Source: a virus
DNA: 42,839 nucleotides
Direction: 5' to 3' (one strand)
Virus record (IMG/VR): IMGVR_UViG_3300040758_000113
The position numbers and the translations under genes are program-made. The notes below the pieces were generated by a model. That model was not told the DNA's origin. It saw nothing but the letters and a program-made list of their open reading frames with translations, and did not search any database. Below are positions 2,138 through 42,827 of this stretch, one piece after another (position 1 is the stretch's first letter; each line of letters begins with the position of its first letter).

Positions 2138-2752
2138 CTACTTTTTATTAAAACGTAACCACCTAGCCATTGATTCAAAAATTTCGGGATTAGTTTCATT
2201 TTGTTTTATGCAATTAGCTTTGTAGGATATAACAGCGATGTTGCCAACCACATATCCTCCTTTAGGGTCAATCCTATCAAGTGATGGGGATTGACGTTGA
2301 GGCCCCATTCCAGTTTTATTGGACTCTAATTCAATTCCTAAAATTGGGCACTTATTGTCTTTTGGCCACGCTTTCTTAATATCTTCCATGGTGATTCCAA
2401 ACTCTAGTCCTCCCTCTCTTGCTCGTCCTTTAGCTGAATGATACATTTTGTATTCTCGTTGTGTTCTTGCTCGGATAGCCCGTCGTGCATGAGACTGTTC
2501 AATGTGACATTGGTAACATTCTGTATTTCTTACAAACCGTTTTGACGTGTGTCCCTCCGAACAAGGACGAGGGAAAGAATAGAATTTTTCTCCTTGGTTT
2601 TTGGCTGCCTTCCTTACCTCCTCTTCCTCCTTTGAGTGTCCCCGAATTACCTTGATTCCCTTATGGGATTCACTAATTTTTCTTCGGTGGTCACTAGAAA
2701 GCTCTGACCCCTTATTCCAAGGAATGTTACCCTTTTCGTATTTTCTGCCCAT
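2138..2752 (-). CDS. HNH homing endonuclease with NUMOD3-like repeats
   Basis: GNIPWNKG...RRKISESHKG (NUMOD3-like) plus C-terminal CPILGIEL...SLDRIDPKGGYVVGNIAVISYKANCIKQN, a phage HNH_3-type motif. Confidence 0.7.
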   Translation of the reverse strand: MGRKYEKGNIPWNKGSELSSDHRRKISESHKGIKVIRGHSKEEEEVRKAAKNQGEKFYSFPRPCSEGHTSKRFVRNTECYQCHIEQSHARRAIRARTQREYKMYHSAKGRAREGGLEFGITMEDIKKAWPKDNKCPILGIELESNKTGMGPQRQSPSLDRIDPKGGYVVGNIAVISYKANCIKQNETNPEIFESMARWLRFNKK

Positions 2753-2781
2753 CCATATCCTCCTATAGATGGGTTGAAAAG

Positions 2782-5700
2782 TTAACTTTCATTAGAAAAC
2801 CTAGGATTCATTAAAGGACCAAATTGCTCATCCAAGTACCCCTCTTTCTCTGCCTTCTCTTCCTGCTTTTCCCTCAATGTTCCGTTAAGGTCCCAAGATG
2901 GGTCAGGTTCATTCATGCCAAAGCGTACAAGGCCAAGTTCCTCAAGCAAATCCTCATTGAGTTTGCGCCAGACCTTTCCATCCCACATCTCTATCCGACT
3001 GGCGGGGATGGTCTTTTGGGTAAAGAAGGCTTCGGCACCAGCATCACCCGTTCCATATTCATCTTCCTCAAACCCGTAACGTTTGTACTCCTTGATGCGC
3101 AAGACTACGGGAATCATGCCATCAGAAACGGGGCTATCTGAGTTGTGGTAAGCCCACTCCTCCACTCTACTGACCCAGAACCCCACGCCCCGTGGGTCAG
3201 AGAAGAAAATACGCCCCTCAGTGTGCCAACCGTAATTCTCACCGATGACCGGGGGATGACCGGGTTCCAACCCCTGCCAGATGATATCCTCAAGTCGGTT
3301 GGCATAGGTCACATGATAGACATACCCCACCGTGGCGGCTTCCTTGGGGATAACCCACGAGGAAGAAGCGGTTACATTCTTCCAAGCTGCCGGGGGTTGA
3401 TGCCATGAATTTTCACTGGTTCCCTTCCAACCGAGTATCTGCGGGTGTGTTCCCTCCTTTAAGCGTATCTCCTTTTCCTCTTCTCCAAGGGAGGGGTCAA
3501 GGTTCACCCAGACGGTTGCCTCCCAGTCAACATCCTGCTCCTGCACTTGTGCATGAATGATGTATTTCTGATACCCCGGTCCAAAGTTTCCCCAGTGTGC
3601 TTCGGCGGCATTTTCATCCCGTGACCAGAAAACCCCGATACCCCGGCGCTTTAATCCCCTGATGTCTTTGAGGGTAACTACCCGGTAGACATCCAATGGG
3701 AAGGACCACATGGAGTGGTCGCCAAGAACATCATAGTACCGGTTCTCCAAATCTTCATAGGCCCGACGCTCCAGATATTCCTGTTGCTCCTTCTGCTCCA
3801 GAGCATCGAAAGCTTCCGTCTCCGCCCGGTCATAGGGTTCCCACTGGTCCCAACTGGAGCCAAACCCATTGACAATCTTCTCAATCCCGCCTTCTTTCTT
3901 AACGAACTCATCCCACGACGGGAAGTGAGCAACAGGAGAGGCGGTCATCGTAAGCTTGGCCTGCTCCTCCAGAACGTTCATAGGAATAATCGCCTTATTA
4001 CCACCCTCGCATTCCGGTTGGTTAGCGTATCCCTCTAGCCCCTCGCCTTCACTCAAGCTCTCGAAGTCATTCTCCCTATGGGGCGTCTGCTTGTGGGAGT
4101 CTGCTGTTTTTATAGACTTGTCTACTATGTCAATCTTCTCAATTTGGTTGACGCTTATCGGCTGTTTCTGTCTTACCGTTTCCATATATCGAAAGCTGTC
4201 TTTCCATGTTATCCCATAGCGGTCATTAAGCTCATCATACCGCCTGACATACTCATCCGATAGTGAATATCCCTCACCCATATCCCGCCTGCTCATGGTG
4301 AGATAGTTGACTAGCCAAGTGAGATTTTGACTCACCCTTGCCTGTTTCCTGATAGCATCCAACCCCACCTTCTGAGAGGAAGTCTTTTTCAGTTCTTCCA
4401 TATCTTCATCAGGCTGGGACTCCTCGTTCACTACTCCATTACCACAGATGGGACAGGCGTTCGCTTCATCCTCTGGGAGATACTGCCAGCAGTAAGCGTG
4501 GTAGTCATCGTACCCCGGCTGACCGGGCTTGACCACGTTGATATCGGGTGGTCCAAACTGGTCATGGGTGATGTCTATGATGGTTCCGTCTTCCGAGACG
4601 TTCCAAACATGGTCGATTTGCTTGCCGTTGTCTTCCAAGTACAGCCCGGCATAAACATCCCAACCATACTTTTTAGAAGCGGAGTCAGCAATGAATCCGC
4701 AGTTACCCTGACCCCTCACGGCGGTGGTATCCCCCATGCGCAACTCCGTGCGCAGAGCACGAGCCTCATCCAAGACCTCGGGAGTGGGCTGAGTATTCAC
4801 AGCGGATGCCTTACTTTGCTGGTAAGCATCCGACCTGTCTTTGAGGTCTTGAAACCACTTCTCGGTTTTCTTCTGTCGCCGGGACCGAGACCACTCCCTC
4901 ATTTTCTCATAAATCTCCTGCCTCTTGGCACGCTCCTCGGCAACACTTGCCGGGGGCTTTTCATCCCATTGCAAACGGAGGTCTGGCATTTTCATCAATG
5001 CCTCGGCAGCGAGAATCAAACCATGGTTATCCTTGTGGGGGTACTCCCAATGCCTAGAACCAATATTAGGGGCATCAACGAAATCTTGGTCGGTGGTCTG
5101 AGTCAGCCGGTACTCTTCCATGTTCTTGCCGCTCATCCATATTTTCTGTTTGCCAGAAATGCGGATAGACGCCTGCCAACGGGGAGAACCCCAGCTAGTA
5201 CGAGAGACTAAAACAAAGAAGGGACGCTCGGTAAACTGTTTCTCGTAACTCTCATCAGATTTATTTGTGATGAAGTCTTTGCCGTGTTTGGCGTTCCAAC
5301 GGTTGGCTATCTCCTTAAAGACCCCACCATGCCCACCTTCGATTCTCACTATCCTATCGAAGACCTTTCCTCCGGGGTAGGTTGACCACACCTTAAGCAT
5401 CTGTTCGTGGTGTACAAGCTCGTGGGCAATGATACGGCGGAGGGTCTCCTCATCATGACAAATGGCTTTTTGAAGGACGATAGTGGTATTGGGTTCCCCG
5501 TGCCGCCACTCGGTCCGGCCTAGCCACTTGGAGCGGGTATAGTCGGCAATCCTGATTTGTGGCTCCGGGAGGCTGGGGTCCACATCCGGCATGAGGCTGT
5601 GAAGCACATTGATGACCTCTCCGTAGTCCAAAGCCTCATCGGCGGCAATGACTCCCCGCTCCTTCAAAGACTTCCTAAGTTCCCCACCCTCTCCCGTGGT

Positions 5701-6039
5701 GCCGCTGCTAACAATTTGCTCACCGGGAAACTCTGCCTTGAGCTTCTCGTACATGGCGGTCGCCACACCACGGCGACGGTATTCCGGCTGAACATGAACG
5801 TACTTTATCCAAATTTCGTTATCGTACTCCGAAAAGTCCACGTAGCCAATACGTGTTCCCTGTTGGGTCTCCTTGCCGTCTGGACCGGTCGCCCATACCC
5901 CGCCACCCTCCAGCCAAGCTTCTACCCTGCCGGAAAGCTCTCCTCGGTGGGAATCATGGATTTCCAAACGAACTGTCATGGGGGGCGCTTCCCCGGATGC
6001 CCCGGCTGTCGGTTGAAGCAATGGATTGAGTGAACTCAT
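2782..6039 (-). CDS. Very large (1085 aa) polyvalent-type protein: GNAT acetyltransferase + SprT-like zincin (HExxH) + papain-fold Cys/His/Asp module + further uncharacterised C-terminal modules
   Basis: GNAT motif VQPEYRRRGVATAMYEKL (~5740-5820). TLRRIIAHELVHHE HExxH (5410-5424), SprT-like. QGNCGFIADS...DHVWNV...IIDITHDQF (4561-4701) parallels the module in ORF 558-2126. ATG start at 6039. Confidence 0.55.
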   Translation of the reverse strand: MSSLNPLLQPTAGASGEAPPMTVRLEIHDSHRGELSGRVEAWLEGGGVWATGPDGKETQQGTRIGYVDFSEYDNEIWIKYVHVQPEYRRRGVATAMYEKLKAEFPGEQIVSSGTTGEGGELRKSLKERGVIAADEALDYGEVINVLHSLMPDVDPSLPEPQIRIADYTRSKWLGRTEWRHGEPNTTIVLQKAICHDEETLRRIIAHELVHHEQMLKVWSTYPGGKVFDRIVRIEGGHGGVFKEIANRWNAKHGKDFITNKSDESYEKQFTERPFFVLVSRTSWGSPRWQASIRISGKQKIWMSGKNMEEYRLTQTTDQDFVDAPNIGSRHWEYPHKDNHGLILAAEALMKMPDLRLQWDEKPPASVAEERAKRQEIYEKMREWSRSRRQKKTEKWFQDLKDRSDAYQQSKASAVNTQPTPEVLDEARALRTELRMGDTTAVRGQGNCGFIADSASKKYGWDVYAGLYLEDNGKQIDHVWNVSEDGTIIDITHDQFGPPDINVVKPGQPGYDDYHAYCWQYLPEDEANACPICGNGVVNEESQPDEDMEELKKTSSQKVGLDAIRKQARVSQNLTWLVNYLTMSRRDMGEGYSLSDEYVRRYDELNDRYGITWKDSFRYMETVRQKQPISVNQIEKIDIVDKSIKTADSHKQTPHRENDFESLSEGEGLEGYANQPECEGGNKAIIPMNVLEEQAKLTMTASPVAHFPSWDEFVKKEGGIEKIVNGFGSSWDQWEPYDRAETEAFDALEQKEQQEYLERRAYEDLENRYYDVLGDHSMWSFPLDVYRVVTLKDIRGLKRRGIGVFWSRDENAAEAHWGNFGPGYQKYIIHAQVQEQDVDWEATVWVNLDPSLGEEEKEIRLKEGTHPQILGWKGTSENSWHQPPAAWKNVTASSSWVIPKEAATVGYVYHVTYANRLEDIIWQGLEPGHPPVIGENYGWHTEGRIFFSDPRGVGFWVSRVEEWAYHNSDSPVSDGMIPVVLRIKEYKRYGFEEDEYGTGDAGAEAFFTQKTIPASRIEMWDGKVWRKLNEDLLEELGLVRFGMNEPDPSWDLNGTLREKQEEKAEKEGYLDEQFGPLMNPRFSNES

Positions 6040-6117: not shown

Positions 6118-6969
6118 TTAAGTGGTTCTCTCATTTACCTTGAGCATAAGCAAAGGATGATATCCGCAGGTACAAGGTTTGCCACGGTTGATGTTCCAGC
6201 GTTGGCAATGCCCTTTTTTAGTCATATAAGACAGGTGTCCTGGCTTGGACATAGTTTTTTTACCATTCAAACTTATGGTAGCTGCTCGTTTCTTAACCCC
6301 CTCCATCATTTTATATCGAGTTTGGGGGTCTGACCATAGCTTCTTAACTAACTCAGATTGTCTGGTGCGAAGCTCTAAATCAGACCACCCCGCATTTACT
6401 GCTTTGGCTTGTTTAGTACGAGCCTCATAAGTAGAAAATCTTTTCCTATTAGCCTTAGATTTTCTATCTCTTACTTCTGGGCTCCTCAGTTTTTTAACAA
6501 CTTTGTCACGGAACTCCGAATCTTGCCATAATTTTTTGATAGACTCGGAATGTTTGGCTTGAGTTTCAGGGTCTTTCCATGCTTCTTTCAACGCCATAGT
6601 TAATCTGGTAATAAATGTGGGGTCGGCTAGTCGATTTTTGGCAATTTCCTTTGCTTCTTCTGAGGTAAATCCCTCTCCTCCTCGACGGATGTTGTAACCA
6701 TATTCAGGGTCTTGGGCTTTTAGAAAAATAATAAAATCCTTTTCGACTTGGTCTAACTCTTCTTTTGTTTGGATATCCGAACGGAGAGCATGAATGCTGA
6801 AACTACTTCTTCCATATTTTCTTATAGCGGCGTAAAGATGGGAGGACCCGCCTAAACCATGTTCCGCTTCCCAAAATTTTTTGTGAAGATATTTGCGGAG
6901 GTCTCTACCCTTATGCTGACCGATGTAGTATTTTCCTGTGATGTGATTAGCGATAAGGTATATGAACAT
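6118..6969 (-). CDS. GIY-YIG homing endonuclease (I-TevI/Seg-like) with NUMOD-type repeats
   Basis: N-terminus MFIYLIANHITGKYYIGQHKG is the GIY-YIG signature. Basic repeats follow in the C-terminal half. GGGGG RBS upstream of the ATG at 6969. Confidence 0.75.
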   Translation of the reverse strand: MFIYLIANHITGKYYIGQHKGRDLRKYLHKKFWEAEHGLGGSSHLYAAIRKYGRSSFSIHALRSDIQTKEELDQVEKDFIIFLKAQDPEYGYNIRRGGEGFTSEEAKEIAKNRLADPTFITRLTMALKEAWKDPETQAKHSESIKKLWQDSEFRDKVVKKLRSPEVRDRKSKANRKRFSTYEARTKQAKAVNAGWSDLELRTRQSELVKKLWSDPQTRYKMMEGVKKRAATISLNGKKTMSKPGHLSYMTKKGHCQRWNINRGKPCTCGYHPLLMLKVNERTT

Positions 6970-8496: not shown

Positions 8497-8550
8497 CTTG
8501 CGGTAAACGGGTATTAAATGATTACCGAACTCCTTATTAGAGGATTCCCA

Positions 8551-9675
8551 ATGAAGGAACTCATAGACATATTTATAGAACGATATCCGATGGTTGACCG
8601 AGACGCCTTTTGGGCATACTTAGACCACATCCAAAAGTCAAAACTACCAGAAAGAGAAAAAGGAAACTGGCACCACATCCTCCCTAAATCTATGTTCCCG
8701 GAATACAAGAGTAGAGTCGGTCATCCGTGGAATTCAGTTAAAATAAGCCCATTTGACCACTTCAAGGCTCACTACCTTTTATTCAGGGCCGTCAAATGCC
8801 AAGCTACCGCCTATGCATGGAAAATGATGAGCAAAATGGGAAAGATTAAAATAGAAGACGAATATCTTCAAGAGTACGAAAGGGCGGTTAGTGTGGTTAA
8901 GGACCAGTGCGGTAAAACAATGAGAGGAAAGGTTGCCGCAAAGGATAAAAATGGGGATATATACCATGTAGAAACAAATGACCCCCGCCTTAAAGACGGT
9001 AGCCTAACGCACTTTGCGAGATACACGGTCAATGTTAAAGACTCTCTCGGAAACCGCTTCAAAGTAAGAAAAGATGACCCTCGATATTTGTCCGGGGAGT
9101 TAGTGCATGTACGAAAGGGCAGAATAACAACGAAGGACAAGGCTGGGATTGTGATTGATACCACCTGTGATGACCCACGGCTGATAACCGGGGAACTCAC
9201 CCATGTAAACAAAGGATATGTTCTAACAATAGATAAAGATGGTGTCTACAAACGAGTAAGAGTGACAGACCCGGCGTACCAAAATGGGGACTTGATTCAT
9301 GCCCGTACCGGATATTCGCCAGATGGTAGCCCGGTATCGCCAAACATAAAATCCCGCCTTTGTCCCCAATGTAAAAAAAGACTAATCTATAAGAATAAGT
9401 ACCACTGTAAAATAGCTGATAAGACTAACGGGCTGTGTGGTAGTTGTGCGGCAAAGAATAGATGTGCCCCCTTATATACTAAAACGGAACGCCACTGCCC
9501 GGTTTGTGGTGTTTCTTTGCACTATAAATATGCTTGGTTATGCAAACAAATGGAGGAGCGGGGGAGCGTTTGCAGAAAATGTTCTTCTATGGCAAGGGCT
9601 AAACGCTTACGATGGCCCCAGACTAGATGGGACCACCAAATTAGTGGTATTATAAATCAAAAAGAAGAACAATAA
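8551..9675 (+). CDS. HNH-type endonuclease with four tandem DPRxxxGxLxH repeats and a Cys-rich C-terminal zinc-ribbon region
   Basis: NWHHILPKSMFPE...WNSVKISPFDHFKAH (HNH-like). Repeats: DPRLKDGSLTH / DPRYLSGELVH / DPRLITGELTH / DPAYQNGDLIH. C-terminus has CPQC...CGSC...CPVCG...CRKC. Start moved to the ATG at 8551 (GAGGA RBS) instead of the track's 8518. Confidence 0.55.
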   Translation: MKELIDIFIERYPMVDRDAFWAYLDHIQKSKLPEREKGNWHHILPKSMFPEYKSRVGHPWNSVKISPFDHFKAHYLLFRAVKCQATAYAWKMMSKMGKIKIEDEYLQEYERAVSVVKDQCGKTMRGKVAAKDKNGDIYHVETNDPRLKDGSLTHFARYTVNVKDSLGNRFKVRKDDPRYLSGELVHVRKGRITTKDKAGIVIDTTCDDPRLITGELTHVNKGYVLTIDKDGVYKRVRVTDPAYQNGDLIHARTGYSPDGSPVSPNIKSRLCPQCKKRLIYKNKYHCKIADKTNGLCGSCAAKNRCAPLYTKTERHCPVCGVSLHYKYAWLCKQMEERGSVCRKCSSMARAKRLRWPQTRWDHQISGIINQKEEQ

Positions 9676-9822
9676 GAATCGGGAAATTGTAGTATTAGAC
9701 ATCATGCGCAGAGAATGCTCCATCAAGGGGATGTAACGGCGAGTGCATGGAATGTACCCAAAACGCCAACTATCACCCCCATCAGTAGTGATAACGCCAA
9801 CAAACACCGCCACAGGAGGATT

Positions 9823-11094
9823 ATGAGTGCAGAGAAGCCTACGAGGGAAGATTTTATTCTGGAGGCGCAGAGGCTATCCAACAATGGAAGCCAGCCAGTT
9901 AGTCGTGATTTCTTTCGTAACAACAGCCCACTTAAGGACCGATGGGCTGCGTATTTCCCCACCTTCGAGGCCCTTCTTGATGCAGCCAACATAAAGCACG
10001 CCCGCAAGGTTGCCCAACCCGCCGTCAAAGCCGCCAAAGTTGCTCCACCCCCGGAAGAGCCGAGGGAAGTATATCTGCGCCGGGACAACAGCCGTCTCAG
10101 AAACGAAGTCAGGAAAGCACATGAGGAGCAGGGCTACTGGCAAGAGATGACCGACGCCATTGTGGACGCCATCACTGGCTTGGACCCGTTACCGCCCGTG
10201 GAGTTTGAATCACCCATGGGTGCGGGCAGCGACATGGCTGCGTGCATCAAACTCTCCGACTGGCATATTGGGGAAATCATCAAGCCCGAGGAGACCGAGG
10301 GATTCGGTATTTACAACTGGGATATAGCACAGGAACGTATGAAGTACATTGCGCAGAAGTTCCTCGGCTGGGTGGATACACACCGAACTACCTTCAACAT
10401 CCCCAACCTGTATGTCTTCGGAGAAGGTGACTGGGTATCCGGCGACATCCACGAAGAACTCCGCCGCACGAATGAGTTCCCCCTCCCCGTACAGGCAACG
10501 CAAGCGGGCAAACTGCTTGCACAGACCGTCTCCACTTTCGCTCCCCATTTCGACAAGATAACCCTTGTGGAGATTGGGGCGGACAACCACGGACGGCTGT
10601 TACAGAAGCCGCAATCCAAGCAGAAGTCCAGCAACTCCATGAGCCACGTGGTGTACGAAATCGCCAATGCCTATCTCCAGAATCACGAGAACATTGACAT
10701 CGTCACTACCGAGGGCATGAAGCATGTGGTCGATATGGTGGGTGTGAAGTTCCTCATCGAACACGGCGACACCGTAAAGGCATGGATGGGCATTCCCTTC
10801 TATGGCCTCGAACGTGAGCGGGGCCGGGAAGCCATCAAGCGGATGCAGGCAATGCTGGATGCTTGGCGGCAGGAAATGGAAGACATGGCGAAGCTCGGCT
10901 TCGACTATATCTCCTGTGGTCACTGGCATGTCCCCGGTATTGTATCCGGCAACATTCTCATCAACGGAAGTCTCAGCGGCACATCGGAATTTGACCACGG
11001 CTGTGGACGGCACGCCCGCCCATCGCAGGTCAGCTTCCTTGTTCACCCGGAACACAAGCTGTTCGATTGGGTCGCTTGGACGCCGCCCATGTAA
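9823..11094 (+). CDS. Calcineurin-like metallophosphoesterase (Mre11/SbcD-type fold) with N-terminal extension
   Basis: Phosphoesterase motifs LSDWHIG (D-x-H), GEGDWVSGDIH, IGADNHG (GNH), EHGD, CGHWHVPG (GHxH). Strong RBS ACAGGAGGATT-ATG at 9823. The track ORF begins at 9715 but has no RBS there. The N-terminal ~90 aa (…NNSPLKDRWAAYFPTFEALLDAANI) resemble the homing-endonuclease-associated DNA-binding repeat. Confidence 0.65.
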   Translation: MSAEKPTREDFILEAQRLSNNGSQPVSRDFFRNNSPLKDRWAAYFPTFEALLDAANIKHARKVAQPAVKAAKVAPPPEEPREVYLRRDNSRLRNEVRKAHEEQGYWQEMTDAIVDAITGLDPLPPVEFESPMGAGSDMAACIKLSDWHIGEIIKPEETEGFGIYNWDIAQERMKYIAQKFLGWVDTHRTTFNIPNLYVFGEGDWVSGDIHEELRRTNEFPLPVQATQAGKLLAQTVSTFAPHFDKITLVEIGADNHGRLLQKPQSKQKSSNSMSHVVYEIANAYLQNHENIDIVTTEGMKHVVDMVGVKFLIEHGDTVKAWMGIPFYGLERERGREAIKRMQAMLDAWRQEMEDMAKLGFDYISCGHWHVPGIVSGNILINGSLSGTSEFDHGCGRHARPSQVSFLVHPEHKLFDWVAWTPPM

Positions 11095-11153: not shown

Positions 11154-11204
11154 CCCGCTTAGGTGAAGAGGGATAATACCAGTTCTCCTCTTCACCTAAG
11201 CGGG
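11154..11204. terminator. Perfect 18-bp inverted repeat hairpin (15-nt loop) between convergent genes; candidate bidirectional terminator
   Basis: cccgcttaggtgaagagg (11154-11171) pairs with cctcttcacctaagcggg (11187-11204). It lies between the + gene ending at 11094 and the - gene ending at 11196. U-tracts are weak. Confidence 0.45.
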
Positions 11205-12039: not shown

Positions 12040-12495
12040 ATGGCTAAAGAAAGAGGAATGTCACATAGTTGGGAAGATTTTCCAAAACGTAAAGATGAAT
12101 TAGGGTTTAACCTTTGCCGCTTCTGCGGCAAAGCTCTAACCGGTCGCCGGACCTCATGGTGCAGCAAACAATGCACCATCGAAGTCCTCCTCCTCTGCGA
12201 CTGGTCATTCATCCGCAACAAAGTAAAGCGCCGGGACAAGTACCGCTGTGTCCTCTGTCATCGCAATAAGCATGAGGCGGGTTCGCTGGAAGTTGACCAT
12301 ATCGTGGAGTTGCAAGACGGTGGGCAGACAGTGATGGAGAACTTACGAACAATGTGTTTAGAGTCTCATAAAGTTAAGACCAAACTCATGAAAACGGCAA
12401 GGTTTGAAAGACGGGTGGTTCTTTCACAAAAGGAATTATCCACCCTTCCATGCATTTCAAAAAAATGGGCAGGGCTTCCGGTCTTAAGCATTTGA
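12040..12495 (+). CDS. HNH endonuclease (small, McrA/HNH_5-like)
   Basis: CRFCGKAL...YRCVLCHRNKHEAGSLEVDHIVELQDGGQTVMENLRTMCLESHKVKT. ATG at 12040 chosen; the track ORF starts at 11977 inside the convergent gene's end. Confidence 0.6.
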   Translation: MAKERGMSHSWEDFPKRKDELGFNLCRFCGKALTGRRTSWCSKQCTIEVLLLCDWSFIRNKVKRRDKYRCVLCHRNKHEAGSLEVDHIVELQDGGQTVMENLRTMCLESHKVKTKLMKTARFERRVVLSQKELSTLPCISKKWAGLPVLSI

Positions 12496-26102: not shown

Positions 26103-26108
26103 GACTGG

Positions 26109-26126: not shown

Positions 26127-26129
26127 GCG

Positions 26130-28249: not shown

Positions 28250-28323
28250 AATCAACCCCCTCTCTTTCTGATATAGGGGCTGATAGTCATTTTAATGAAA
28301 ATAACCAACCCAATCACTAAAGG

Positions 28324-28596: not shown

Positions 28597-28674
28597 ATCA
28601 AAGCGGAGACCGCAGATACAGCAATCGAAATCCCTAGTCTCCCTTTGGAAATAGAGACTCTGGAACTGGTGACA

Positions 28675-34900: not shown

Positions 34901-35661
34901 TTGACCTTGGCGATTTCCTCAAGCTCGATTTGCTCAATACCCAGCAGGTTGCTGGACAACGCCTTCAAGCCGCCGCTATCCCCCGTATAGAACTGCTTGT
35001 CTTCCATGTCAGCTTTGGGGTCATCAATGTATTGCAAAACCTGCACATCTTCAAAGTGAGGATAAGGACGAAAGACAATGCCCATGGTGAGGCGCATGAC
35101 TTCCCGGTCGAATTTCCCATTGTAAAAAACAAGGTGTACCTGATTGAAGAACGGCTGGAGAATCTCAGCGCATATCCTGCGGTCTATGTTGCGGGCCGGG
35201 GTGGTGAGAGCAAGGTCCTGAAACTCATGGGTGATGGGGATGTATATGCCCTTGACACCATCGGCAGAGAGACAGATGCCGGAAATATCGGTCTTGATTT
35301 CATACTCTTGGTGGTAGGAGCCATCAGGCAGCTTCACCATCCTGATAAAGAGCCGGGTGTCAAGGCTCACGTCTTCCGTATCCAAAGCCACAACTGGTTC
35401 GGTGACCCCGTAAAACTCAAAGCGGGGAGCATTGGTGAGAACCTCGTCAACCCACTTCTGTAGGGCTTCGGGCGTATCGACAATCTCGAACGCCTTCTTA
35501 CTCATCCAGTCTTTTTTGACTTTGGCTACACCACCGCCAGCGGAAAGCTCGGCAAGAATCTCCCGGAACATGGTGCGAATGTCCCGGAGCTTGACGACTT
35601 TCTTCTTCTTAACCTTCTTCAAATCGTCGGTGGTGACTTTTTCTTTCTTAACCTTTGCCAT
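31966..35661 (-). CDS. Family A DNA polymerase with 3'-5' proofreading exonuclease
   Basis: Exo I ALDTED, Exo II FYNGKFDREV, Exo III YYAASDA. Pol motif A VDYGNIEMRAAA, motif B RAKHLRDLAKIINFALLYGG, motif C SVHDE. Confidence 0.85.
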   Translation of the reverse strand: MAKVKKEKVTTDDLKKVKKKKVVKLRDIRTMFREILAELSAGGGVAKVKKDWMSKKAFEIVDTPEALQKWVDEVLTNAPRFEFYGVTEPVVALDTEDVSLDTRLFIRMVKLPDGSYHQEYEIKTDISGICLSADGVKGIYIPITHEFQDLALTTPARNIDRRICAEILQPFFNQVHLVFYNGKFDREVMRLTMGIVFRPYPHFEDVQVLQYIDDPKADMEDKQFYTGDSGGLKALSSNLLGIEQIELEEIAKVKADTCPHNGSPFCSCTLEQKKENKHGLKQHFVPFSWIPVDIALYYAASDAICTWLLWEKLHPLARTRKTVHRIDHELVDSITWIERQRFLIDTDRHTRTVKGHQRVLAQFQKKLYDLAIAAGYKENATDDGVVLPHDRFNPDSNDDLRILFFDVKGYAPLKMTDGGKSGVKKASCDAEVVEDLHKLHPEDEFLEVFSDYKSYISLHPSSLHYDPSDGTARIYLKQNVVSGGRLSSAGGDFYKDGGFGLNSQAVKKVEGYLMWKVTGNVLIPDEIPEDQIEPHTEEELHPSCFREMEESYIVEEHDEEVAAEPAGDWVDGKPRSTIKHVVTMGKRKVKKRAPGIIHNHMGQYMGYTVCLVPGCQTCKDKFGFLIENGKIDANQRVNLRCLFYSPPGWTFFTVDYGNIEMRAAANCSGEPEFINEFLHGKGDFHSLTASKVFPEFSDSKSPNYRAKHLRDLAKIINFALLYGGIAYTIYENMKKQDPNITFQRCEEMVENYWKGVPVFFEFCQRKQAIARDQLICTTTTNRVIKFDSAMKALHIHVPNEEEKKNLWQYRDYMKKSKELREADDPRWKEYLNLANSMWKNPDTGVRNTMDYSKFMGKIQRVSVNAPIQGLCGDFMRMSLNKIRQWVEADPLIATIFMLHCSVHDEIDFSVKNEYVPFVLPRITRMMKLRKLHQIMKWQVPIEADAEYGSSWDVEHHVTGDDDHIPAAWTRVSGMDRYLPGEWDSATIKNLIKAISSQVEARVEKAKAFLKENLHERAFQAAWWCFNKKKGKKEVVLQTDPKEIQRALIAAIQLDEFWRIDNMPDEDDAKLETLEQYETRMGLGPADRNPAALIYGPLGSLPLDAPVKRYVPEPLKVEISWNSPQEASEGVGGTQGTLNLFVAAENLPVAPPEPTVAPPVVDSTPQVPETKGPPPGVTVYDISGADQLTLMQIDITLGKGDKSVWVLHDGIRMCLHDRAMDSVPEHYLKKPA

Positions 35662-36694: not shown

Positions 36695-37351
36695 TTAAGG
36701 TCTAATCCACTCAAATTTGAGTATATTCAACAGTCGAATTTGATGGGGGGTGGGGTCAATATCATCTTCGCATAAAAAGGTCCCCCAGCATGTACCATCG
36801 CATAACTTCCAAAGGTCTTGGCGAGAACCCCGATGAAACATCAGGGCCAGCCTAAAGGAGATGTGACGTGAAGCATCCTCCTTACGATAACTGAAATCTG
36901 CAAGAAAATACTTCCCCTTTGGGACATCCTCCGTAAGGACAGTGTATGCATTCAAACCATCAAGAGAGAAACTAAACTGAAAGAGCGCCGGGGAGTCTTT
37001 CCGTCTGTCAAATATGGAAACTGTGTTGTGTTTGAAGCAAGGGTGACCGTTGTGCATCACCCACGGATTGTCGCTCCGCTTTTCATCTCTAATTTCCACA
37101 TCCCCCGTCACCCACTTACCCTCGGGATGACGTGGTCCTAGATAAACCTGAACATCGCCAAGTCCAACTTCACGGAGTTTTTTTGCCCAGATTTCCCGTT
37201 GGGACAGGAATTCAATTAAGGCAGATTTTCCGGGGTTATCATATGCATCATAATCCTTATCCCGAAAATCAGCGCCCTCAAGTTTTCCCATATCTACCTC
37301 GATTCCGGTTGACAAGACGGGCAGCATAGCTCCGTACCACAGTCCGGGCAT
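36695..37351 (-). CDS. Hypothetical protein
   Basis: 218-aa ORF. No ATPase signature motif seen. Confidence 0.4.
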   Translation of the reverse strand: MPGLWYGAMLPVLSTGIEVDMGKLEGADFRDKDYDAYDNPGKSALIEFLSQREIWAKKLREVGLGDVQVYLGPRHPEGKWVTGDVEIRDEKRSDNPWVMHNGHPCFKHNTVSIFDRRKDSPALFQFSFSLDGLNAYTVLTEDVPKGKYFLADFSYRKEDASRHISFRLALMFHRGSRQDLWKLCDGTCWGTFLCEDDIDPTPHQIRLLNILKFEWIRP

Positions 37352-39564
37352 TTCGGTTTGGATTCCTTGGACAGAAGCAACGTCAAAGAGTTAACCTTGG
37401 CGTTAGCGGCGTCCAGTTCCTCTTCCGTAAACTTAAGCTCACTCTTCTTGCTGGGGAGCTTCAATGCCTCTGCCAACAAGTTGATGTTCTTAAGCGCCGA
37501 GAGGTAGTGAGCAATGACTCCGAGTAGGAAGTTGGCTTCTTGTAGCACACCCTCTAACTTCTCCCCGCACTCCTTGGGGCTTGCTCCCTTTCTTTCGACA
37601 ATTTCCAACAGGGATAGAACCGCCTGCTTGCGTTTGTACCCCTTAGCCACAAGGTCCCACTGGACTATAGTATTGTCAATGCCATGTACCACCTGTCCCG
37701 TGACTTCCCGGCGACGGAGGATTTTTACCGCCTCGGCATACATCCGGGCGAGGCGCTCCTGTTTCTCAATGGGGGATACATCCGGCACAGACAGCTTGAG
37801 GATGAAGGACCGCATCTTCGCTATCCGATTCGTCCTTGTAAGTGTCTCGGTCAGCGAGGCCAACAATGACTCATAGCTGTTGACCTTTGCCTCATAACCA
37901 GACACGGTGTGGGCGGAGTCCTGTGCCGAGGCATTAAACCTCTCAAGTTTACCCCGGCGTTCCTCTGCCTCACGGATTTCTTCGGCGAGCGTTCGGGCTT
38001 CCCCGTTCTTTTCGGTAATGCGCCGGTTGGCTTCCTTCTTCCCTGCATCCAATTTTTCGGTAGAGGCAAAGGCCCCAAGGATGGCATTCAGGTCGTTGGG
38101 CTTCCATGCGTCGGGGTCAATGAGGAATTGTGCCTTGTTCTGTTGAGAAAAGATGGGGTCTATGGTTGTGTCCCCCACTTTGACGGTGCCATACTTGAGC
38201 ACCTTCATGGGTTCGGGGACACTATCGCCGAGAGCCTTATACTCTATCGGCTTACCCTTTTCATCTTCACCAATGGCGTACTTGGTGGAACCCTTGCGGG
38301 TCCGGGTGGCCCTGATGGGGTCGTTGACACCCTCAACCTCAAGAGTCACTTCCATCTTCTCATCCTGTCCATTACGGACAAAATCCTGCGGGAGTTCATT
38401 GCGGAATACCCCCCGCAGGGCACGGAAGATGGAGCTATTATGAGTTATAGTAAAATCACCAAGAAGAAAAAGCCCATCCCCGCTCAACTCAAATCCGAAA
38501 TATTCTCCCCACCCTTTATGCTTTATTTTAAACCCCGTTGTTAAACAAGATTTTTTGGATTGCGATAATGCCTTTTTTCGCTTTATGATAGTAGGAATAC
38601 TAGGCAAATTCCCGAAAATTAAAACCGTATGGTATATCTTATTGTATCGTTTGTTTAACTTAGGAGAAATAGATGCCCTAAACCCGAGAGACCTCGCTAA
38701 AAATGCCACTTGTTTAGCAAGTCGCTCAAACTGCGAACAAAAGGCAAATTGAGACGGTTCTAATCCAGCATCAGAATCTAGCAACCCAGCCAATAGTAAA
38801 AGTCTATCTTCCCTTGAGCCAACCAGATAGCTATGTGGTATGCATTTTCCGTCTGCATCCACCAACTTTAACAACCGGAAACGGTTAAGAAGGGCATTAC
38901 TTCGACTTCCTTTATGTTTAGTAGAAAATCGGTAGGAATCATCATCATTGGGTATAAGATGGAGACCATACTTGGTGGCAAGTTTTCGACAATAGTTTAC
39001 AACCTCAAGGTCGGCGGTTGTTACTTCTAATTTATGTAAATCGGTGGTACCATCGCCAAGCCAATAGCCCACCAAATAAGGTTCAAATTTTTTATCTACC
39101 CGGCACTTAAAATCTATACCTCCCGAACGATGCAAACGGGCATTCCGTTTATAGGTAGCACTTTTGGAAAGAAAGTCCTTAACTGAAATCTCCACCCTGC
39201 ATTGTCTTAACTGTAAGGGACTGAGACGACGTTTTTTTCCATCTAATCGGCAAATCAAGGACAAAATGTGATACTGATTACACCCCCAAGAACCATCGAA
39301 GCCCCCTTTATTGGGCAAAACCTCATACATATCATCAAACCCGTGGGAAATACTAAGAACGGTGCGAGGCGTGCTATCCGGCCCCATAAGAAAGTCACCT
39401 ACACCTATGTTCTTTGCTAATTTATTTGTCCCGTCATACATAAGAACAGGAGTATTTGGAGCAAGACACTTACCCTTATTCGACGGTCCGACAATCAATG
39501 TCAACCCGTCCACAATAAGGGAGAAATCTTTCCATGGTTGAAAATTCTTACCGGATAGTTTCAT
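37294..39564 (-). CDS. SbcC/Rad50-like P-loop ATPase (N-terminal ATPase lobe + coiled coil ending in CxxC...CxxC), interrupted by an intein in the Walker A motif
   Basis: Spliced N-terminus would read MKLSGKNFQPWKDFSLIVDGLTLIVGPSNKGK|SSIFRALRGVF, the canonical Rad50/SbcC start with GxNGxGKSSI. Long coiled-coil. Ends KCPDCGTELCCPSCQ. Confidence 0.65.
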   Translation of the reverse strand: MKLSGKNFQPWKDFSLIVDGLTLIVGPSNKGKCLAPNTPVLMYDGTNKLAKNIGVGDFLMGPDSTPRTVLSISHGFDDMYEVLPNKGGFDGSWGCNQYHILSLICRLDGKKRRLSPLQLRQCRVEISVKDFLSKSATYKRNARLHRSGGIDFKCRVDKKFEPYLVGYWLGDGTTDLHKLEVTTADLEVVNYCRKLATKYGLHLIPNDDDSYRFSTKHKGSRSNALLNRFRLLKLVDADGKCIPHSYLVGSREDRLLLLAGLLDSDAGLEPSQFAFCSQFERLAKQVAFLARSLGFRASISPKLNKRYNKIYHTVLIFGNLPSIPTIIKRKKALSQSKKSCLTTGFKIKHKGWGEYFGFELSGDGLFLLGDFTITHNSSIFRALRGVFRNELPQDFVRNGQDEKMEVTLEVEGVNDPIRATRTRKGSTKYAIGEDEKGKPIEYKALGDSVPEPMKVLKYGTVKVGDTTIDPIFSQQNKAQFLIDPDAWKPNDLNAILGAFASTEKLDAGKKEANRRITEKNGEARTLAEEIREAEERRGKLERFNASAQDSAHTVSGYEAKVNSYESLLASLTETLTRTNRIAKMRSFILKLSVPDVSPIEKQERLARMYAEAVKILRRREVTGQVVHGIDNTIVQWDLVAKGYKRKQAVLSLLEIVERKGASPKECGEKLEGVLQEANFLLGVIAHYLSALKNINLLAEALKLPSKKSELKFTEEELDAANAKVNSLTLLLSKESKPKCPDCGTELCCPSCQPESR
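38437..39468 (-). mobile_element. Intein (344 aa) with LAGLIDADG homing-endonuclease domain, inserted after the Walker-A Lys
   Basis: N-terminal splice junction GK|CLAPNTPVLMYDG (Cys1). LAGLIDADG blocks LVGYWLGDGT and LAGLLDSDAG. C-terminal FTITHN|S (His-Asn plus +1 Ser). Boundaries checked codon by codon: 39468 = Cys1, 38437-38439 = terminal Asn. Confidence 0.7.
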
Positions 39565-39866
39565 TTGTAAATAACCTTGATGTTATGAACGACAACCCAA
39601 ATGTAAACTGCTATCAGGATAGAAAGTGTGATATCCACCCCTGGGGCACCCCTCACACCGACAATGAAAATCCCAGCCGCAATGGTGCTTAAGGCTAAGA
39701 CCTTCACCACAATAATTCCAGGAATACTGCCGATTTTACACATCAACCAAGATGCAATGGGGTTTACCTCCTCATTTTCCGTTTTCTTAAGTCCCATATA
39801 GGTAGTTATCCCATCAGAGATATTAAGAACTACAAGGACCAAAAACAGTAAAATAAAAAGAGCCAC
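39561..39866 (-). CDS. Small membrane protein (3 predicted TM helices)
   Basis: MALFILLFLVLVVL..., ...GIIVVKVLALSTIAAGIFIVGV..., ...ITLSILIAVYIWVVV. Conserved-looking DGITTYMGLK...E.NPI segment. ATGA overlap with the Rad50-like gene. Confidence 0.45.
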   Translation of the reverse strand: MALFILLFLVLVVLNISDGITTYMGLKKTENEEVNPIASWLMCKIGSIPGIIVVKVLALSTIAAGIFIVGVRGAPGVDITLSILIAVYIWVVVHNIKVIYK

Positions 39867-39872
39867 GCCACC

Positions 39873-41210
39873 TCACTTAAGTTCGTCTATCTCTGTTACT
39901 GCATTTTCAAGAGATTCTGCGGTGGGGACTTCACCAAAATCTTCCTCATCGGGGTAGCTCCCCGCTGGCTCTTCGAGGAATGCCTTTTCCGCTTCACTGA
40001 GACCTTCACCCTTGAAGCGCTCGGTTTCATCGTGCTCCACGGCATCCAAAACCATGCCCTTGAGCTTCCCGAGAACCTCCGGGTTTTGCTTGATAACGAG
40101 GTCTTCGACAAGCTCTGTTTTGCTGGCATAGGTGATGATGGCGTCGTCGGCGGACTTGCCGACAAACCACTTCTTTTTGTCGTACTCAATGAAGCCATAC
40201 CCGCAGGCAAGCTCCCGGATGCTCATGTTCTCGTCAATGCCGAAGTTGGGCCTGACGTAGACGAAGGCTTCCCGGTAGCCGCCGCCCGTCACCTTGTTCT
40301 TGAGGGAGCGAACCCGGACCTTGTTAGCGGTCGGGTAGTTTTTGAGCACTTCACCCATGGGCTGGATGAGAAGCCACTGTTCTTTTTTGTCCGGCATCTT
40401 ATCCCAACTCCACGGCTTGATTTCCGTTTCCAGAATGAGTTCCAGCATCACGCTGGGAGCAAACCTCGCCATATATCCGCCCGGCAGGCTGTATTCCCGG
40501 TTAGTGTAACTCCAGTGGGAAGCGTTCTCCGCATCGTCGTCCATACGGGCACGAGTCTGGTTAATGATGGTCAGGTGGGCATCCTGCTCCATAAGGTGAG
40601 GAGTGAGAAACTTGTAGAACGTGGTGATGCCCTTAGCATGGCTTCCGTAGTTAGCCCGGAATGCTTTGCCGCTTTCAATATCCTTAAGCTCCACCTTCAT
40701 CTGCATGAACGGGATGGAGTCATCCACGAAGTAGCGGATACCATATTTGGTGAGAAGCTGAATATGCCGCTTGATGGACTCTTGCAAGTTGGACGGCTGC
40801 TCGAAGAAACAGAGGTCGGGGTCAACACCGAGAGCGTAAGCGTACTGGGCGCTAATGGCCGGTTCGTACTCGAAGATAGCGATGGGTTCACCGGTTGCTT
40901 GCTGGTAATTGGCGGCGTTTACAAAGGCAGTGGTGGTCTTGCCAGCGCCCTCATTGCCGTGTATCTGCGTAATGCGTCCGCCTCGGGCGATACCGCCGAG
41001 CCGTAGAACCTTGTCAAAGACGAAGTGACCATAGGGAACAAGGATTTCCTGAAAGTCCTTGCCGTAGATACGATGGTCGGACTTCGTATCCTTGCGCAAG
41101 TAAGCAAGGGCATTACGCCGCTGTTCCACCGTCCAAGTCCGGGGACTGCCAGTCGGCATTTCAAAATTGAGTTCCTTTTCCTTCTTCTTCTTTGCGGCTG
41201 CCTTTGCCAT
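39873..41210 (-). CDS. RecA/UvsX-family recombinase
   Basis: GGIARGGRITQIHGNEGAGKTTTAF (RecA Walker A/L1 region). 445 aa with an extended acidic C-terminus. Confidence 0.75.
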   Translation of the reverse strand: MAKAAAKKKKEKELNFEMPTGSPRTWTVEQRRNALAYLRKDTKSDHRIYGKDFQEILVPYGHFVFDKVLRLGGIARGGRITQIHGNEGAGKTTTAFVNAANYQQATGEPIAIFEYEPAISAQYAYALGVDPDLCFFEQPSNLQESIKRHIQLLTKYGIRYFVDDSIPFMQMKVELKDIESGKAFRANYGSHAKGITTFYKFLTPHLMEQDAHLTIINQTRARMDDDAENASHWSYTNREYSLPGGYMARFAPSVMLELILETEIKPWSWDKMPDKKEQWLLIQPMGEVLKNYPTANKVRVRSLKNKVTGGGYREAFVYVRPNFGIDENMSIRELACGYGFIEYDKKKWFVGKSADDAIITYASKTELVEDLVIKQNPEVLGKLKGMVLDAVEHDETERFKGEGLSEAEKAFLEEPAGSYPDEEDFGEVPTAESLENAVTEIDELK

Positions 41211-41947
41211 TATTCCTCCTGTGATAGAATACTGAGATGAACTGCCATTTTTCTTATATGATTCAAAAACTCTTCATAGGAAAGTTGTTGTTTTGCCCAA
41301 TTACATATACGACAACAAGGAACTACATTGCCCGGAATATATCCCTTATGGATATCTTTCCTATCAATCCCATTGTAGGGCAGCTTTCCATTATTGTAAA
41401 GACGACGGGTAACCGCTTCATTGCTGGGGGGTGCTCCACAATAATGGCAGGGTTGAAAAATTAAACTCAAGAATAATTCTTTCTCTAGCCCCCATTTCAA
41501 TCCCCTAGACTTAGCACTGGTCTTATACTCACGGTATACCCGTCCACTCAGAAACTCTTTGGGTTCTAAAAGATTGGCATAGCGCCGACACCCACAACTA
41601 GTAGTGCGGGATAAATTATTGGTACTTACAGGTAAAATCTTTCCACAAACACACAGGCACTTCCAAAAAACCCGGTTTTTTTCAACATGGTCTAGTTCTT
41701 GTACCTCCAAAAAACCAAACCTTTTACCGGAAAGGTCTTTGAAATTCCATGCTTTTCTGGTGGGAAAAGGTACACACCCGCAACTCCCAGTTTTCTTTTG
41801 AGTAAGATTGGAACCGTATACCGGTTTCTCAGTTCCACATCTACATCGGCATTGATAAACTCCCCGACCTTTGTAAGATATGACAAACCACAACCCAAAT
41901 GTTTTCCCAACCAAATGACGGGCCTTAGATTTGGTACTCACACACAT
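41210..41947 (-). CDS. HNH endonuclease with zinc-ribbon repeats (paralog of 11196-12020 / 16446-17033)
   Basis: CHYCGAPP...YNGIDRKDIHKGYIPGNVVPCCRICNWAKQQ. Repeats YQCRCRCGTEK...CGCV and WKCLCVCGKI...CGCRR. The track start at 41974 overlaps the RuvC gene by 50 nt, so the ATG at 41947 is preferred. Start uncertain. Confidence 0.55.
   Translation of the reverse strand: MCVSTKSKARHLVGKTFGLWFVISYKGRGVYQCRCRCGTEKPVYGSNLTQKKTGSCGCVPFPTRKAWNFKDLSGKRFGFLEVQELDHVEKNRVFWKCLCVCGKILPVSTNNLSRTTSCGCRRYANLLEPKEFLSGRVYREYKTSAKSRGLKWGLEKELFLSLIFQPCHYCGAPPSNEAVTRRLYNNGKLPYNGIDRKDIHKGYIPGNVVPCCRICNWAKQQLSYEEFLNHIRKMAVHLSILSQEE
41213..41234 (-). promoter_or_regulatory. AGTATTCTA variant box + SD upstream of recA/uvsX-like gene
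   Basis: Minus strand: tcagtattctatcacAGGAGGaataATG. Confidence 0.3.
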
Positions 41948-42827
41948 CGAGTTTTCGTTCCGTTGAGCTTGCATCCCTACTCAAGAATTTGAAAGTTAAT
42001 TTTTGATACTCATAGAAATACTCAGGACGATGCAAAACTCCTGCCGTTACGAAATGTTGATTACGCCCCTTGCCCTTGGAGATTTGGGCGGAGTTGCAAA
42101 GTGACTGGAGGACCCTCTCCGGGATTTCACGAGGCCGACCGAGCAATATGCTGGATACATACCGCCCCATCATCGCCAACAGAACGGCGTCACAGGAATC
42201 AGGGTCCAGAGCCGGAAACCGGGTCTTGTCAATAAACTCGTAAGCCTTGAGGATGTTCTCTTTCTTATTGGTAGTTCCCCGCTGGGACAGGCCCATGAGG
42301 CTACGCAAGGTGCTGGCATTGATGGAGAGAATCTTTACCACGGCAAACTTCTTCCACAAGTCTCCATCGAACAGAACAAGATGCATAATACGGTTCAATG
42401 CCACAAGGTAATCGTTGGTCGGCGTGGGATGCTCCGTGGCAATGAGCAGACCCATGGTATGAATGGGAGTGACGCTGGGCTGCCCATTGTTTATGGCAAG
42501 AAAATCCTCGAACTTGATGGTTGTGGCCGCTTCACTGAGACGTTCCTTGAGGAACAGGGAGATACCCTTGCTGCGAATCCAAATGGGGTCTTTGGAAGAA
42601 TCCGGCTTGACACTGCCCACCTGTGTCCAATCAGCGTAGGTACCGAACATGCCCGCCGTGCGTCCGCATTCCTCACAAGGGTGGGATACATGGCTGAGAC
42701 ATCCGGGATGCTCACAGGGTTGGCCTTTGTGGGGGTCTTCGGGCAGGATGACATGCATCATCGCATACCCGGTGCGGGAGAGGCTGGGGTCCAACCCCAT
42801 GACAAGCCAATGGTCCACGTCCGGCAA
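41925..42827 (-). CDS. RuvC-like Holliday-junction resolvase with inserted Cys/His zinc module
   Basis: LVMGLDPSLSRTGYAMM (RuvC motif I, catalytic Asp). ...DSCDAVLLAMM (motif IV-like). Insert CEHPGC...HPCEECG. The track start is a TTG at 42827. The frame is open to the window edge, so the true start may lie at 42800 (ATG) or beyond 42839. Confidence 0.6.
   Translation of the reverse strand: MPDVDHWLVMGLDPSLSRTGYAMMHVILPEDPHKGQPCEHPGCLSHVSHPCEECGRTAGMFGTYADWTQVGSVKPDSSKDPIWIRSKGISLFLKERLSEAATTIKFEDFLAINNGQPSVTPIHTMGLLIATEHPTPTNDYLVALNRIMHLVLFDGDLWKKFAVVKILSINASTLRSLMGLSQRGTTNKKENILKAYEFIDKTRFPALDPDSCDAVLLAMMGRYVSSILLGRPREIPERVLQSLCNSAQISKGKGRNQHFVTAGVLHRPEYFYEYQKLTFKFLSRDASSTERKLDVCEYQI

Follow-up and report, generated by a model that had tools for sequence, protein, structure and literature searches.

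When phages co-infect a cell, homing endonuclease genes affect how they recombine, which genes are excluded and how they compete; to our knowledge, nearly everything known about how these genes work comes from phage T4 and a few other cultured phages. T4 carries 15 homing elements in its whole genome, equal to 11% of its coding potential, a load unmatched among its relatives (PMC2988022), and Pectobacterium phage CB7, with 23 elements in 142.8 kb (about 7%), is described as having among the highest counts on record (PMC7344957). The group of His-Me finger nucleases defined by PacI (group 20) is mostly viral, has no Pfam model and carries a tyrosine in place of the catalytic histidine (PMC5714182), and a C-terminal position of the EndoVII motif goes with endonucleases rather than with resolvases (Fang et al., 2018; PMC6083498). 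Here we describe IMG/VR virus record IMGVR_UViG_3300040758_000113, a stretch of 42,839 nucleotides (nt) of viral DNA (hereafter, the window) that is mostly transcribed from the minus strand and encodes a replication and recombination module dense with nuclease genes of these kinds.

Our analysis indicates that at least 13 selfish homing elements, independent of one another and drawn from five nuclease families, have very probably invaded this module, where they would sit alongside one older, resident HNH gene. Among the invading elements, 12 or 13 are free-standing genes in intergenic spacers beside conserved genes and one is an intein. A sequence-only reading of the window had counted 14 free-standing nuclease genes plus one intein; all 15 elements lie where it had placed them, each matches a nuclease family in Pfam or PHROGs, and profile and fold comparisons bore the count out. 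The nuclease genes and the intein are as follows (E-values after each family; lengths in amino acids, aa):

2138-2752, minus strand: PacI-like (tyrosine-type) His-Me/HNH gene; phrog_3322, 1e-30; leads to PacI through the profile of alignment A1
6118-6969, minus strand: free-standing GIY-YIG homing endonuclease gene; phrog_314 (homing endonuclease), 5e-21; phrog_7168, 4e-17
8518-9675 (likely start 8551), plus strand: HNH homing endonuclease gene; phrog_12434 (HNH), 7e-32; phrog_655, 1e-17
11196-12020, minus strand: PacI-like gene, member of alignment A1; phrog_1035, 2.5e-8, the weakest profile support of the set
12040-12495, plus strand: canonical HNH gene; Pfam HNH (PF01844), 1.1e-8
12386-13039, minus strand: HNH gene; PF01844, 1.4e-3 (marginal, below the gathering score); phrog_9443, 7e-16
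13708-14439, minus strand: free-standing GIY-YIG homing endonuclease gene; phrog_15526, 6e-19; phrog_314, 8e-14
16446-17033, minus strand: PacI-like gene; phrog_374, 6e-19; PacI profile match
19889-20614, plus strand: EndoVII-motif gene with an N-terminal Cys-rich region; Pfam Endonuclease_7, 1e-17, residues 174-237 of 241
23716-24465, minus strand: GIY-YIG plus NUMOD3 gene; Pfam NUMOD3, 1.7e-13; GIY-YIG, 7e-4 (below the gathering score)
27665-28249, minus strand: EndoVII-motif gene upstream of a gp23-like recombination exonuclease; Endonuclease_7, 5e-18, residues 99-180 of 196
31501-31929, minus strand: EndoVII-motif gene directly downstream of the family A DNA polymerase (PolA) gene; Endonuclease_7, 9.6e-21, residues 61-138 of 142
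38437-39468, minus strand: LAGLIDADG intein, 344 aa; Pfam Hom_end_hint, 1e-14; LAGLIDADG_3, 1e-8; Hom_end, 4e-5
41210-41974, minus strand: PacI-like gene; phrog_374, 8.5e-24; PacI profile match

The genes that Pfam missed were placed by PHROGs in families of endonucleases, HNH proteins or homing endonucleases (E-values between 1e-30 and 2.5e-8). The profiles point to nuclease families and not to the generic zinc-finger proteins that had been named as an alternative identity, and starts at 8551, 17033 and 28249 fit the profile alignments better than do the longest open reading frames (ORFs). Profile scans of the other ~30 ORFs of the window revealed no further nuclease genes of these kinds. Because no Rfam family reached its gathering score anywhere in the window, and hence no intron was recognized, the nuclease genes are regarded as free-standing; an intron-encoded status for the elements was considered and dropped on the same scan.

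A megablast search with 25 kb of the window found no match among cultured phages, and relatives were located by protein search after nucleotide search had given none. The closest is the 317-kb IMG/VR contig IMGVR_UViG_3300041809_000571 (c571, or the sister contig), of which 57 kb (56.9 kb) were assembled for the comparison. The outgroups were L001 and L029, which are one 59-kb contig (PolA 68% identical in aa sequence), L004 and L005 (PolA 73%), and Tunturi_5 (PolA 44%), a phage of Tunturiibacter (Acidobacteriota) that is the nearest cultured relative, has local gene order in common with the window and is a 309-kb jumbo myovirus (PMC11924767). The sister contig is collinear with the window and 93.2% identical over 28,350 aligned nt. 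It could be aligned to 89.5% of the non-nuclease positions of the window but to only 335 of the 10,057 nuclease positions, and all 335 fall in the HNH gene at 12040-12495. In this comparison, of the kind that the sequence-only reading had proposed, the intein and 13 of the 14 free-standing genes are presence/absence polymorphisms at otherwise collinear junctions, being absent from the 93%-identical sister contig or replaced there; 12040-12495 is the exception. At eight sites (2138, 6118, 11196, 13708, 16446, 23716, 31501 and 41210) the window has 464-941 nt where c571 has a spacer of 25-267 nt. Ten junctions are clean (305-1033 nt against 4-267 nt), with flanks that resume at high identity, and no element remnants were found in the empty sites of c571. 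Site by site, the comparison gave:

2138: 834 nt in the window, 122 nt in c571
6118: 924 nt in the window, 27 nt in c571, with clean flanks
8518: 1,961 nt in the window, 481 nt in c571
11196: 941 nt in the window, 94 nt in c571; L029 also lacks the element
12386: an unrelated 189-aa ORF without a PHROG match in c571; L029 lacks the element
13708: 848 nt in the window, 267 nt in c571; L029 also lacks the element
16446: 637 nt in the window, 29 nt in c571; L029 also lacks the element
19889: no counterpart in c571 or L029; unrelated sequence in c571
23716: 891 nt in the window, 123 nt in c571; the gp24/gp25 junction of Tunturi_5 lacks the element
27665: an unrelated 284-aa ORF in c571; the gp22/gp23 junction of Tunturi_5 lacks the element
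31501: 464 nt in the window, 25 nt in c571; L001 and Tunturi_5 also lack the element
41210: 788 nt in the window, 84 nt in c571; L001 and L004 also lack the element

The unrelated ORFs that c571 holds at three of these sites (189 aa, 284 aa and others) gave no nuclease-family matches. L001/L029, L004 and Tunturi_5 lack the elements at every site that they cover. Because c571 and all of the more distant relatives that cover the sites are without them, we regard the elements as gains in the lineage of the window. The relatives hold different nuclease genes at other junctions, a pattern that would be expected of homing elements. Only the HNH gene at 12040-12495 is kept at its site in relatives, after the exonuclease (74% aa identity in c571 and 65% in L029), and it is either an old resident or a domesticated gene.

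The first ~300 nt of the GIY-YIG gene at 23716-24465 (the catalytic domain, window 24164-24466) are 88.5% identical to a GIY-YIG gene that lies downstream of the portal gene at a different site of the sister contig (c571 39173-39475). The rest of the two genes is ~52% identical overall in aa sequence, and this similarity suggests domain shuffling or movement between sites.

The intein lies after GPSNKGK, in the Walker A loop of an SbcC-like ATPase (37294-39564). It spans Cys33 to Asn376, ends in His-Asn, is followed by Ser at position +1 and has two LAGLIDADG motifs; its sequence (CLAPNTPV...LVGYWLGDGT...LLAGLLDSDAG...ITHN/S, the slash marking the splice junction) has the predicted splicing blocks of an intein together with the LAGLIDADG signature. 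The homolog in c571 reads GPSNKGK/SSIFRAL, so that the intein is missing exactly and in frame, and the homologs in c571, L001 and L004 all join residue 32 or 33 straight to 377. The N-extein is 79% identical to that of c571 and the C-extein side 97.5%. The intein itself shares ~40% identity with the P-loop inteins of many unrelated ATPases. A non-nuclease gene next to it shows the same kind of polymorphism:

39561-39866, minus strand: DUF5658 ORF, 101 aa, between the RecA-like and SbcC-like genes; Pfam DUF5658, 3e-12

At this position the window has 305 nt where c571 has 4 nt, and L001 also lacks the ORF, which may be cargo of, or a hitch-hiker beside, the intein-bearing gene.

A different LAGLIDADG intein, of ~252 aa, was observed in motif A of the PolA of L004 (IDY/CLSPETRLL...LLSHN/CNIEMRAAAN; L004 11959-12719), whereas the PolA of the window has none, and L004 also carries ~1 kb of extra ORFs between its homolog of ORF 36359 and the primase gene. 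Between its exonuclease and polymerase domains, PolA has a hypervariable in-frame segment (residues ~550-590; window 33886-34012) of ~40 aa in the window versus ~195 aa in c571, with flanks that are more than 97% identical. The extra 465 nt of c571 were considered as a mini-intein, and this was rejected: they are an in-frame variable loop without intein boundaries.

Taken as a whole, the elements make up 14 of ~44 genes and 10,057 of 42,839 nt (23.5%), or 0.35 elements per kb. They are, as had been claimed, interleaved with core genes, occupying spacers beside those for PolA, the clamp loader, the RecA-like protein, the SbcC- and SbcD-like proteins, the gp23-like exonuclease and the methyltransferase. 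Counts in the relatives, made by homology to the element set of the window itself, were:

c571: 3 elements in 56.9 kb
L001: 1 element in 23.6 kb
L029: 2 elements in 11.4 kb
L004: 1 element plus the intein in 24.4 kb
Tunturi_5: 0 elements in 78 kb

The load extends beyond the window, with at least 6 further elements of the same strain in ~25 kb of neighboring DNA. In contigs of this strain, the 9 kb to its right hold an HNH gene, two GIY-YIG genes and a short stretch that matches the C-terminal part of the GIY-YIG protein of 6118, the 9 kb to its left hold a GIY-YIG gene and an HNH-like gene, and a block that the window skips (see below) holds two GIY-YIG genes beside the sliding clamp and an ATPase. 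The strain total is therefore at least 21 elements in about 68 kb, counting the window, ~10 kb beyond each of its ends and the skipped block. A 388-aa ORF (L010 3510-4676), ~5-6 kb beyond the right end of the window and amid these additional HNH and GIY-YIG genes, has a precomputed Pfam match to DUF723 and, in our own Pfam scan, a weak match to DUF7560; it may encode another mobile-element protein.

The elements also differ in composition, with a GC content of 0.42 versus 0.52 in the rest of the window, and the sequences beside them are diverged. Less than 100 nt from an element, identity to c571 is 90.5%, and it climbs to 94.5% at distances of more than 1 kb; gene ends that adjoin elements are 91.1% identical compared with 94.5% for other gene ends. 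In the gene for an InPase-domain protein, the half next to the HNH gene at 8518 is 53% identical to c571 in aa sequence and the far half 89%; divergence is likewise seen at the N-terminal end of the gp23-like gene, beside 27665. This flank divergence may be read as indirect evidence of co-conversion.

The three GIY-YIG genes (6118, 13708 and 23716) have the N-terminal catalytic domain (with its GIY, YIG, Arg, Glu and Asn) and the C-terminal modular DNA-binding region of that family, with the motifs FIYLI...YYIGQ...E..FI...GYN visible in the translations. The 6118 protein, 39% identical to that of 23716, contains repeats that resemble NUMOD3 and that surfaced as a false family match to GerD; 13708-14439 has weak zinc-ribbon-like Pfam matches; and 23716-24465 sits between the clamp loader gene and an antiterminator-like gene. 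The His-Asn-His beta-beta-alpha-metal motif of canonical HNH enzymes is present in 8518-9675, 12040-12495 and 12386-13039. The first of these, upstream of the SbcD-like exonuclease gene, has no Pfam match; its translation shows NWHHILPK...N...H, four DPRxxxGxLxH repeats and C-terminal zinc ribbons. The other two are convergent, and their 3' ends overlap by 110 nt, with both catalytic motifs outside the overlap.

The remaining four genes that had been labeled HNH (2138, 11196, 16446 and 41210) are indeed nucleases, but they are PacI-like rather than canonical HNH enzymes. Their joint profile (alignment A1) matches the restriction endonuclease PacI (3LDY) with an E-value of 3.5e-7, and all four have the similar core and the conserved omega-loop tyrosine and lack the catalytic histidine. 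They have the motif (L/I)DRxD...GY...N...CxxCNxxK in common, with D159, R160, G166, Y167, N171, N180 and K183 (numbering of the 2138 protein) invariant in A1. The CxxC zinc-binding pairs around the active site are present in 11196, 16446 and 41210 and replaced in 2138 (NKCPILG...SYKAN). Pfam is silent on these genes because the PacI group has no Pfam model. The gene at 16446-17033, whose product is 38% identical to that of 41210-41974, lies between methyltransferase and glycosyltransferase genes, and the stop of 41210-41974 overlaps the start of the RecA-like gene by 1 nt.

In the EndoVII-motif genes (19889, 27665 and 31501) the PF02945 domain is C-terminal in each case and carries the D, H, H, R and N residues, visible as DHDH or DHNH...RG(I/L)LC..CN. 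F-CphI and most of the characterized members of this group are associated with group I introns; the genes of the window are intergenic, and the Rfam scan was empty.

The sequence-only reading had spoken of intense homing or marker exclusion. A homing-like distribution was indeed found, and it is from this distribution that we infer cleavage activity, cleavage specificity and homing itself. Family membership, intact catalytic motifs, intergenic or in-frame placement, precise presence/absence, lower GC and local drops in flank identity were observed, a pattern that agrees with published criteria for phage homing genes (PMC2988022, PMC10448857). When a carrier of an element and a relative without it infect the same cell, the encoded endonuclease would cut the naive genome in or near the neighboring conserved gene, and the phage's own recombination-dependent repair would then copy the nuclease gene and a flanking stretch from the carrier genome. 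The carrier would be protected by differences in, or disruption of, the target sequence.

A number of observations weigh against an invasion by recently mobile homing genes. At 12386, 19889 and 27665 the sister contig has unrelated sequence and not an empty site. At the left-hand sites 2138, 6118 and 8518 gain and loss are indistinguishable, as only sister contigs were found there and no outgroup. The HNH gene at 12040-12495 is conserved in three lineages, unlike a recent mobile element, and the PacI-like genes are without the canonical catalytic histidine. Six genes have no above-threshold Pfam match and are supported by PHROG names that are themselves mostly predictions, and the gradient of flank identity is modest and confounded by regional differences in divergence. 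Finally, a search of IMG/VR for near-identical copies of two of the elements returned only distant relatives (43% aa identity or less) and no donor. Because the element paralogs are at most 39% identical and such copies were not found, several donors are suggested rather than one recent burst.

Some or many of the nucleases could instead be domesticated phage tools, for example a Holliday-junction resolvase (one EndoVII gene), a packaging or replication HNH enzyme (12040-12495), or agents of host-DNA degradation or of the exclusion of competitors or satellites. The retention of 12040-12495 at the same site in c571 and L029 fits such a role, general profile scans identified no other resolvase in the window, and the literature describes homing nucleases co-opted for competition and anti-defense (PMC10448857, PMC13096335). 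However, the 93%-identical genome and the outgroups do without 13 of the 14 genes, all three EndoVII motifs have the C-terminal position tied to endonucleases rather than resolvases (PMC6083498), and five unrelated families are each inserted singly between core genes. We consider domestication of some or many of the nucleases to be rather unlikely: it is plausible for 12040-12495, possible for one EndoVII gene, and not plausible for genes missing from the 93%-identical genome. That the elements are ancestral and were deleted in c571 and the other relatives seems quite improbable. Homing genes are known to decay and be lost, and the three left-hand sites are without an outgroup, but at least 10 independent, precise and remnant-free deletions would be needed in c571, repeated in L001/L029, L004 and Tunturi_5, and the GC of the elements looks foreign.

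An artefactual density, arising from chimeric metagenome assembly or from generic zinc-finger ORFs, is hardly credible. In its favor, the junction at 28737-28905 has the look of a shortcut through a repeat, the window contains one homopolymer frameshift, and several of the proteins are Cys-rich. Nevertheless, different samples yielded the same gene orders, on a 338-kb ENA contig, on a 55-kb JGI contig and on more than 20 further contigs, and the catalytic motifs and profile and fold matches are specific to nucleases. Because independent contigs repeat the element junctions, an assembly artefact is excluded at those junctions. Invasion by homing elements thus remains the reading that we prefer, and the elements are of known kinds (free-standing homing genes); what stands out is their density, family diversity and apparently recent acquisition.

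The sequence-only reading had also listed a nuclease-like domain inside ORF 558-2126:

1752-2093, minus strand: GIY-YIG-fold module with a CxxC zinc ribbon, at the N-terminus of ORF 558-2126

Fold evidence suggests a GIY-YIG assignment, and the module is probably a domain of a giant multidomain, polyvalent-type protein rather than a mobile homing gene in its own right. A PDB sequence search and a homolog search with the module returned nearly nothing. Its counterpart in c571 forms the C-terminal end of a 2048-aa ORF, which runs on from the homolog of 2782-6039 and consists of that homolog, an 837-aa in-frame insertion of duplicated domains and the GIY-YIG module. After this ORF, c571 has a 1269-aa ORF and an EndoVII gene, both missing from the window, and the neighboring 1345-aa gene left of the window has an ART-PolyVal domain. 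The breakpoint of this difference shows a 7-nt microhomology at window 1754-1760; a ~60-nt duplication flanking a 5.4-kb insertion in c571, hinted at by tblastn, proved to be a microhomology of 7 nt. The PacI-like gene at 2138-2752 falls precisely at the boundary of ORF 2782-6039 and the module, two parts of a single uninterrupted ORF in c571, so that either a gene was split by insertion in the window or a fusion occurred in c571.

The other principal features of the module are:

9715-11094: SbcD-like exonuclease
24501-25607: clamp loader
28675-30828: portal-like ORF
28737-28905: 169-nt repeat of portal-internal sequence
31966-35661: PolA
37294-39564: SbcC-like ATPase, intein-bearing
39873-41210: RecA-like protein

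A primase zinc-finger protein, a methyltransferase, a glycosyltransferase, the InPase-domain protein and giant multidomain proteins are also encoded. At the 169-nt repeat the portal gene gives way directly to ORF 28324-28596, and the window probably skips a conserved block of 10-12 kb with homologs of Tunturi_5 gp8, gp9 (sliding clamp), gp14 (ATPase) and gp22 (primase). Both c571 and L019 contain the block, L019 being 99.98% identical to window 24073-28905; the portal homolog of the window ends at the equivalent of residue 660 of the 815 in Tunturi_5 gp7, and both ends of the 338-kb ENA contig lie inside the repeat. The junction is either a repeat-mediated deletion variant or an assembly shortcut, and an artefact is probable here. 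Nuclease activity could conceivably lie behind both this rearrangement, if real, and the split gene at 2138. At position 27167 the window has a run of six G where the otherwise identical JGI contig L030 has seven. Owing to the missing G, a 401-aa gene appears as two ORFs, 27144-27701 and 26497-27147, and the cause is either a sequencing error in the homopolymer or a true frameshift variant; the intact gene is the homolog of Tunturi_5 gp23, annotated as 'exonuclease recombination-associated protein'.

The source is best explained as an uncultured jumbo phage of about 340 kb from soil or peat, of which the window is the replication and recombination module. Its genotype was assembled repeatedly from environmental samples, including the 338-kb ENA contig (ERZ27250039 k141_400892) and the 55-kb JGI contig, which differs from the window at one base over 22 kb. 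The exact 41210-41974 protein was found in the same context on 23 contigs (26 collection blocks) from several samples, and in one metagenome scan the exonuclease matched nothing beyond a 2.6-kb fragment and the sister contig already in hand.

With filled and empty alleles defined for more than 10 sites, the locus offers material for cleavage assays and for the measurement of co-conversion tracts in natural populations. The comparisons also suggest mobile-element behavior for two kinds of nuclease, the PacI-like (tyrosine-type) and the free-standing EndoVII-motif enzymes. On the practical side, such loads fragment and inflate gene calls and create repeats that mislead the assembly of huge phage genomes.

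How does this locus compare with known systems? The closest are the seg (GIY-YIG) and mob (HNH) genes of T4 (Edgell, Gibb and Belfort, 2010; PMC2988022). Like these, the elements of the window are intergenic and mostly co-oriented with their neighbors, lie beside replication and recombination genes, are absent from close relatives, include the GIY-YIG plus NUMOD-type architecture and have flank divergence consistent with co-conversion. They differ in belonging to an unrelated lineage (an Acidobacteriota-type jumbo phage), in that no introns were found in the window, and in drawing on five families, among them the PacI-like and EndoVII-motif types, which play no part in T4 homing. The claim that the density exceeds that of T4 per kb holds within the window (~4x T4, with 23.5% of window DNA versus 11% of T4 coding potential), although this comparison sets a window against a whole genome.

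PacI itself (Shen et al., 2010; Jablonska et al., 2017; PMC5714182) resembles the four PacI-like genes in the catalytic-region profile match, in the DRxD...GY...N...CxxCNxxK motif and in having Tyr for His. It is, however, a bacterial rare-cutting restriction enzyme of 142 aa, whereas the window genes encode phage proteins of 195-274 aa with extra N-terminal Cys-rich repeats, and their behavior as insertion polymorphisms suggests a homing-type rather than a restriction-type role. The three EndoVII-motif genes share with F-CphI and the other 'DHHRN' homing endonucleases (PMC6083498) a C-terminal DHxH...R...N domain, an N-terminal DNA-binding region and small size, and differ in being apparently free-standing, with no intron detected, and mutually distant (30-39% aa identity). 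The intein fits the P-loop LAGLIDADG inteins of ATPases, given its insertion after the GK of GxxxxGK[ST], complete Hint domain and two LAGLIDADG motifs; its host protein, an SbcC-like ATPase of a jumbo phage, sets it apart.

With the HEG-rich phages (phages rich in homing endonuclease genes) ICP1 (PMC10448857) and CB7 (PMC7344957), the locus has in common nuclease genes that mark the boundaries of sequence exchange between related phages. Its local element load is above the whole-genome fractions of CB7 (about 7%) and T4 (11%), and the count of at least 21 elements in ~68 kb is already close to the highest reported whole-genome number, the 23 of CB7. We suggest only tentatively, as a possibility that we would not favor at present, that this is the heaviest phage homing-endonuclease load yet seen, acquired since the split from an almost element-free, 93%-identical sister. 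The two genomes, the sister having been found in comparable metagenomes, would then form a natural 'invaded versus naive' system, in which multi-family homing, co-conversion tracts and nuclease-bounded recombination in an Acidobacteriota jumbo phage could be read directly from population metagenomes.

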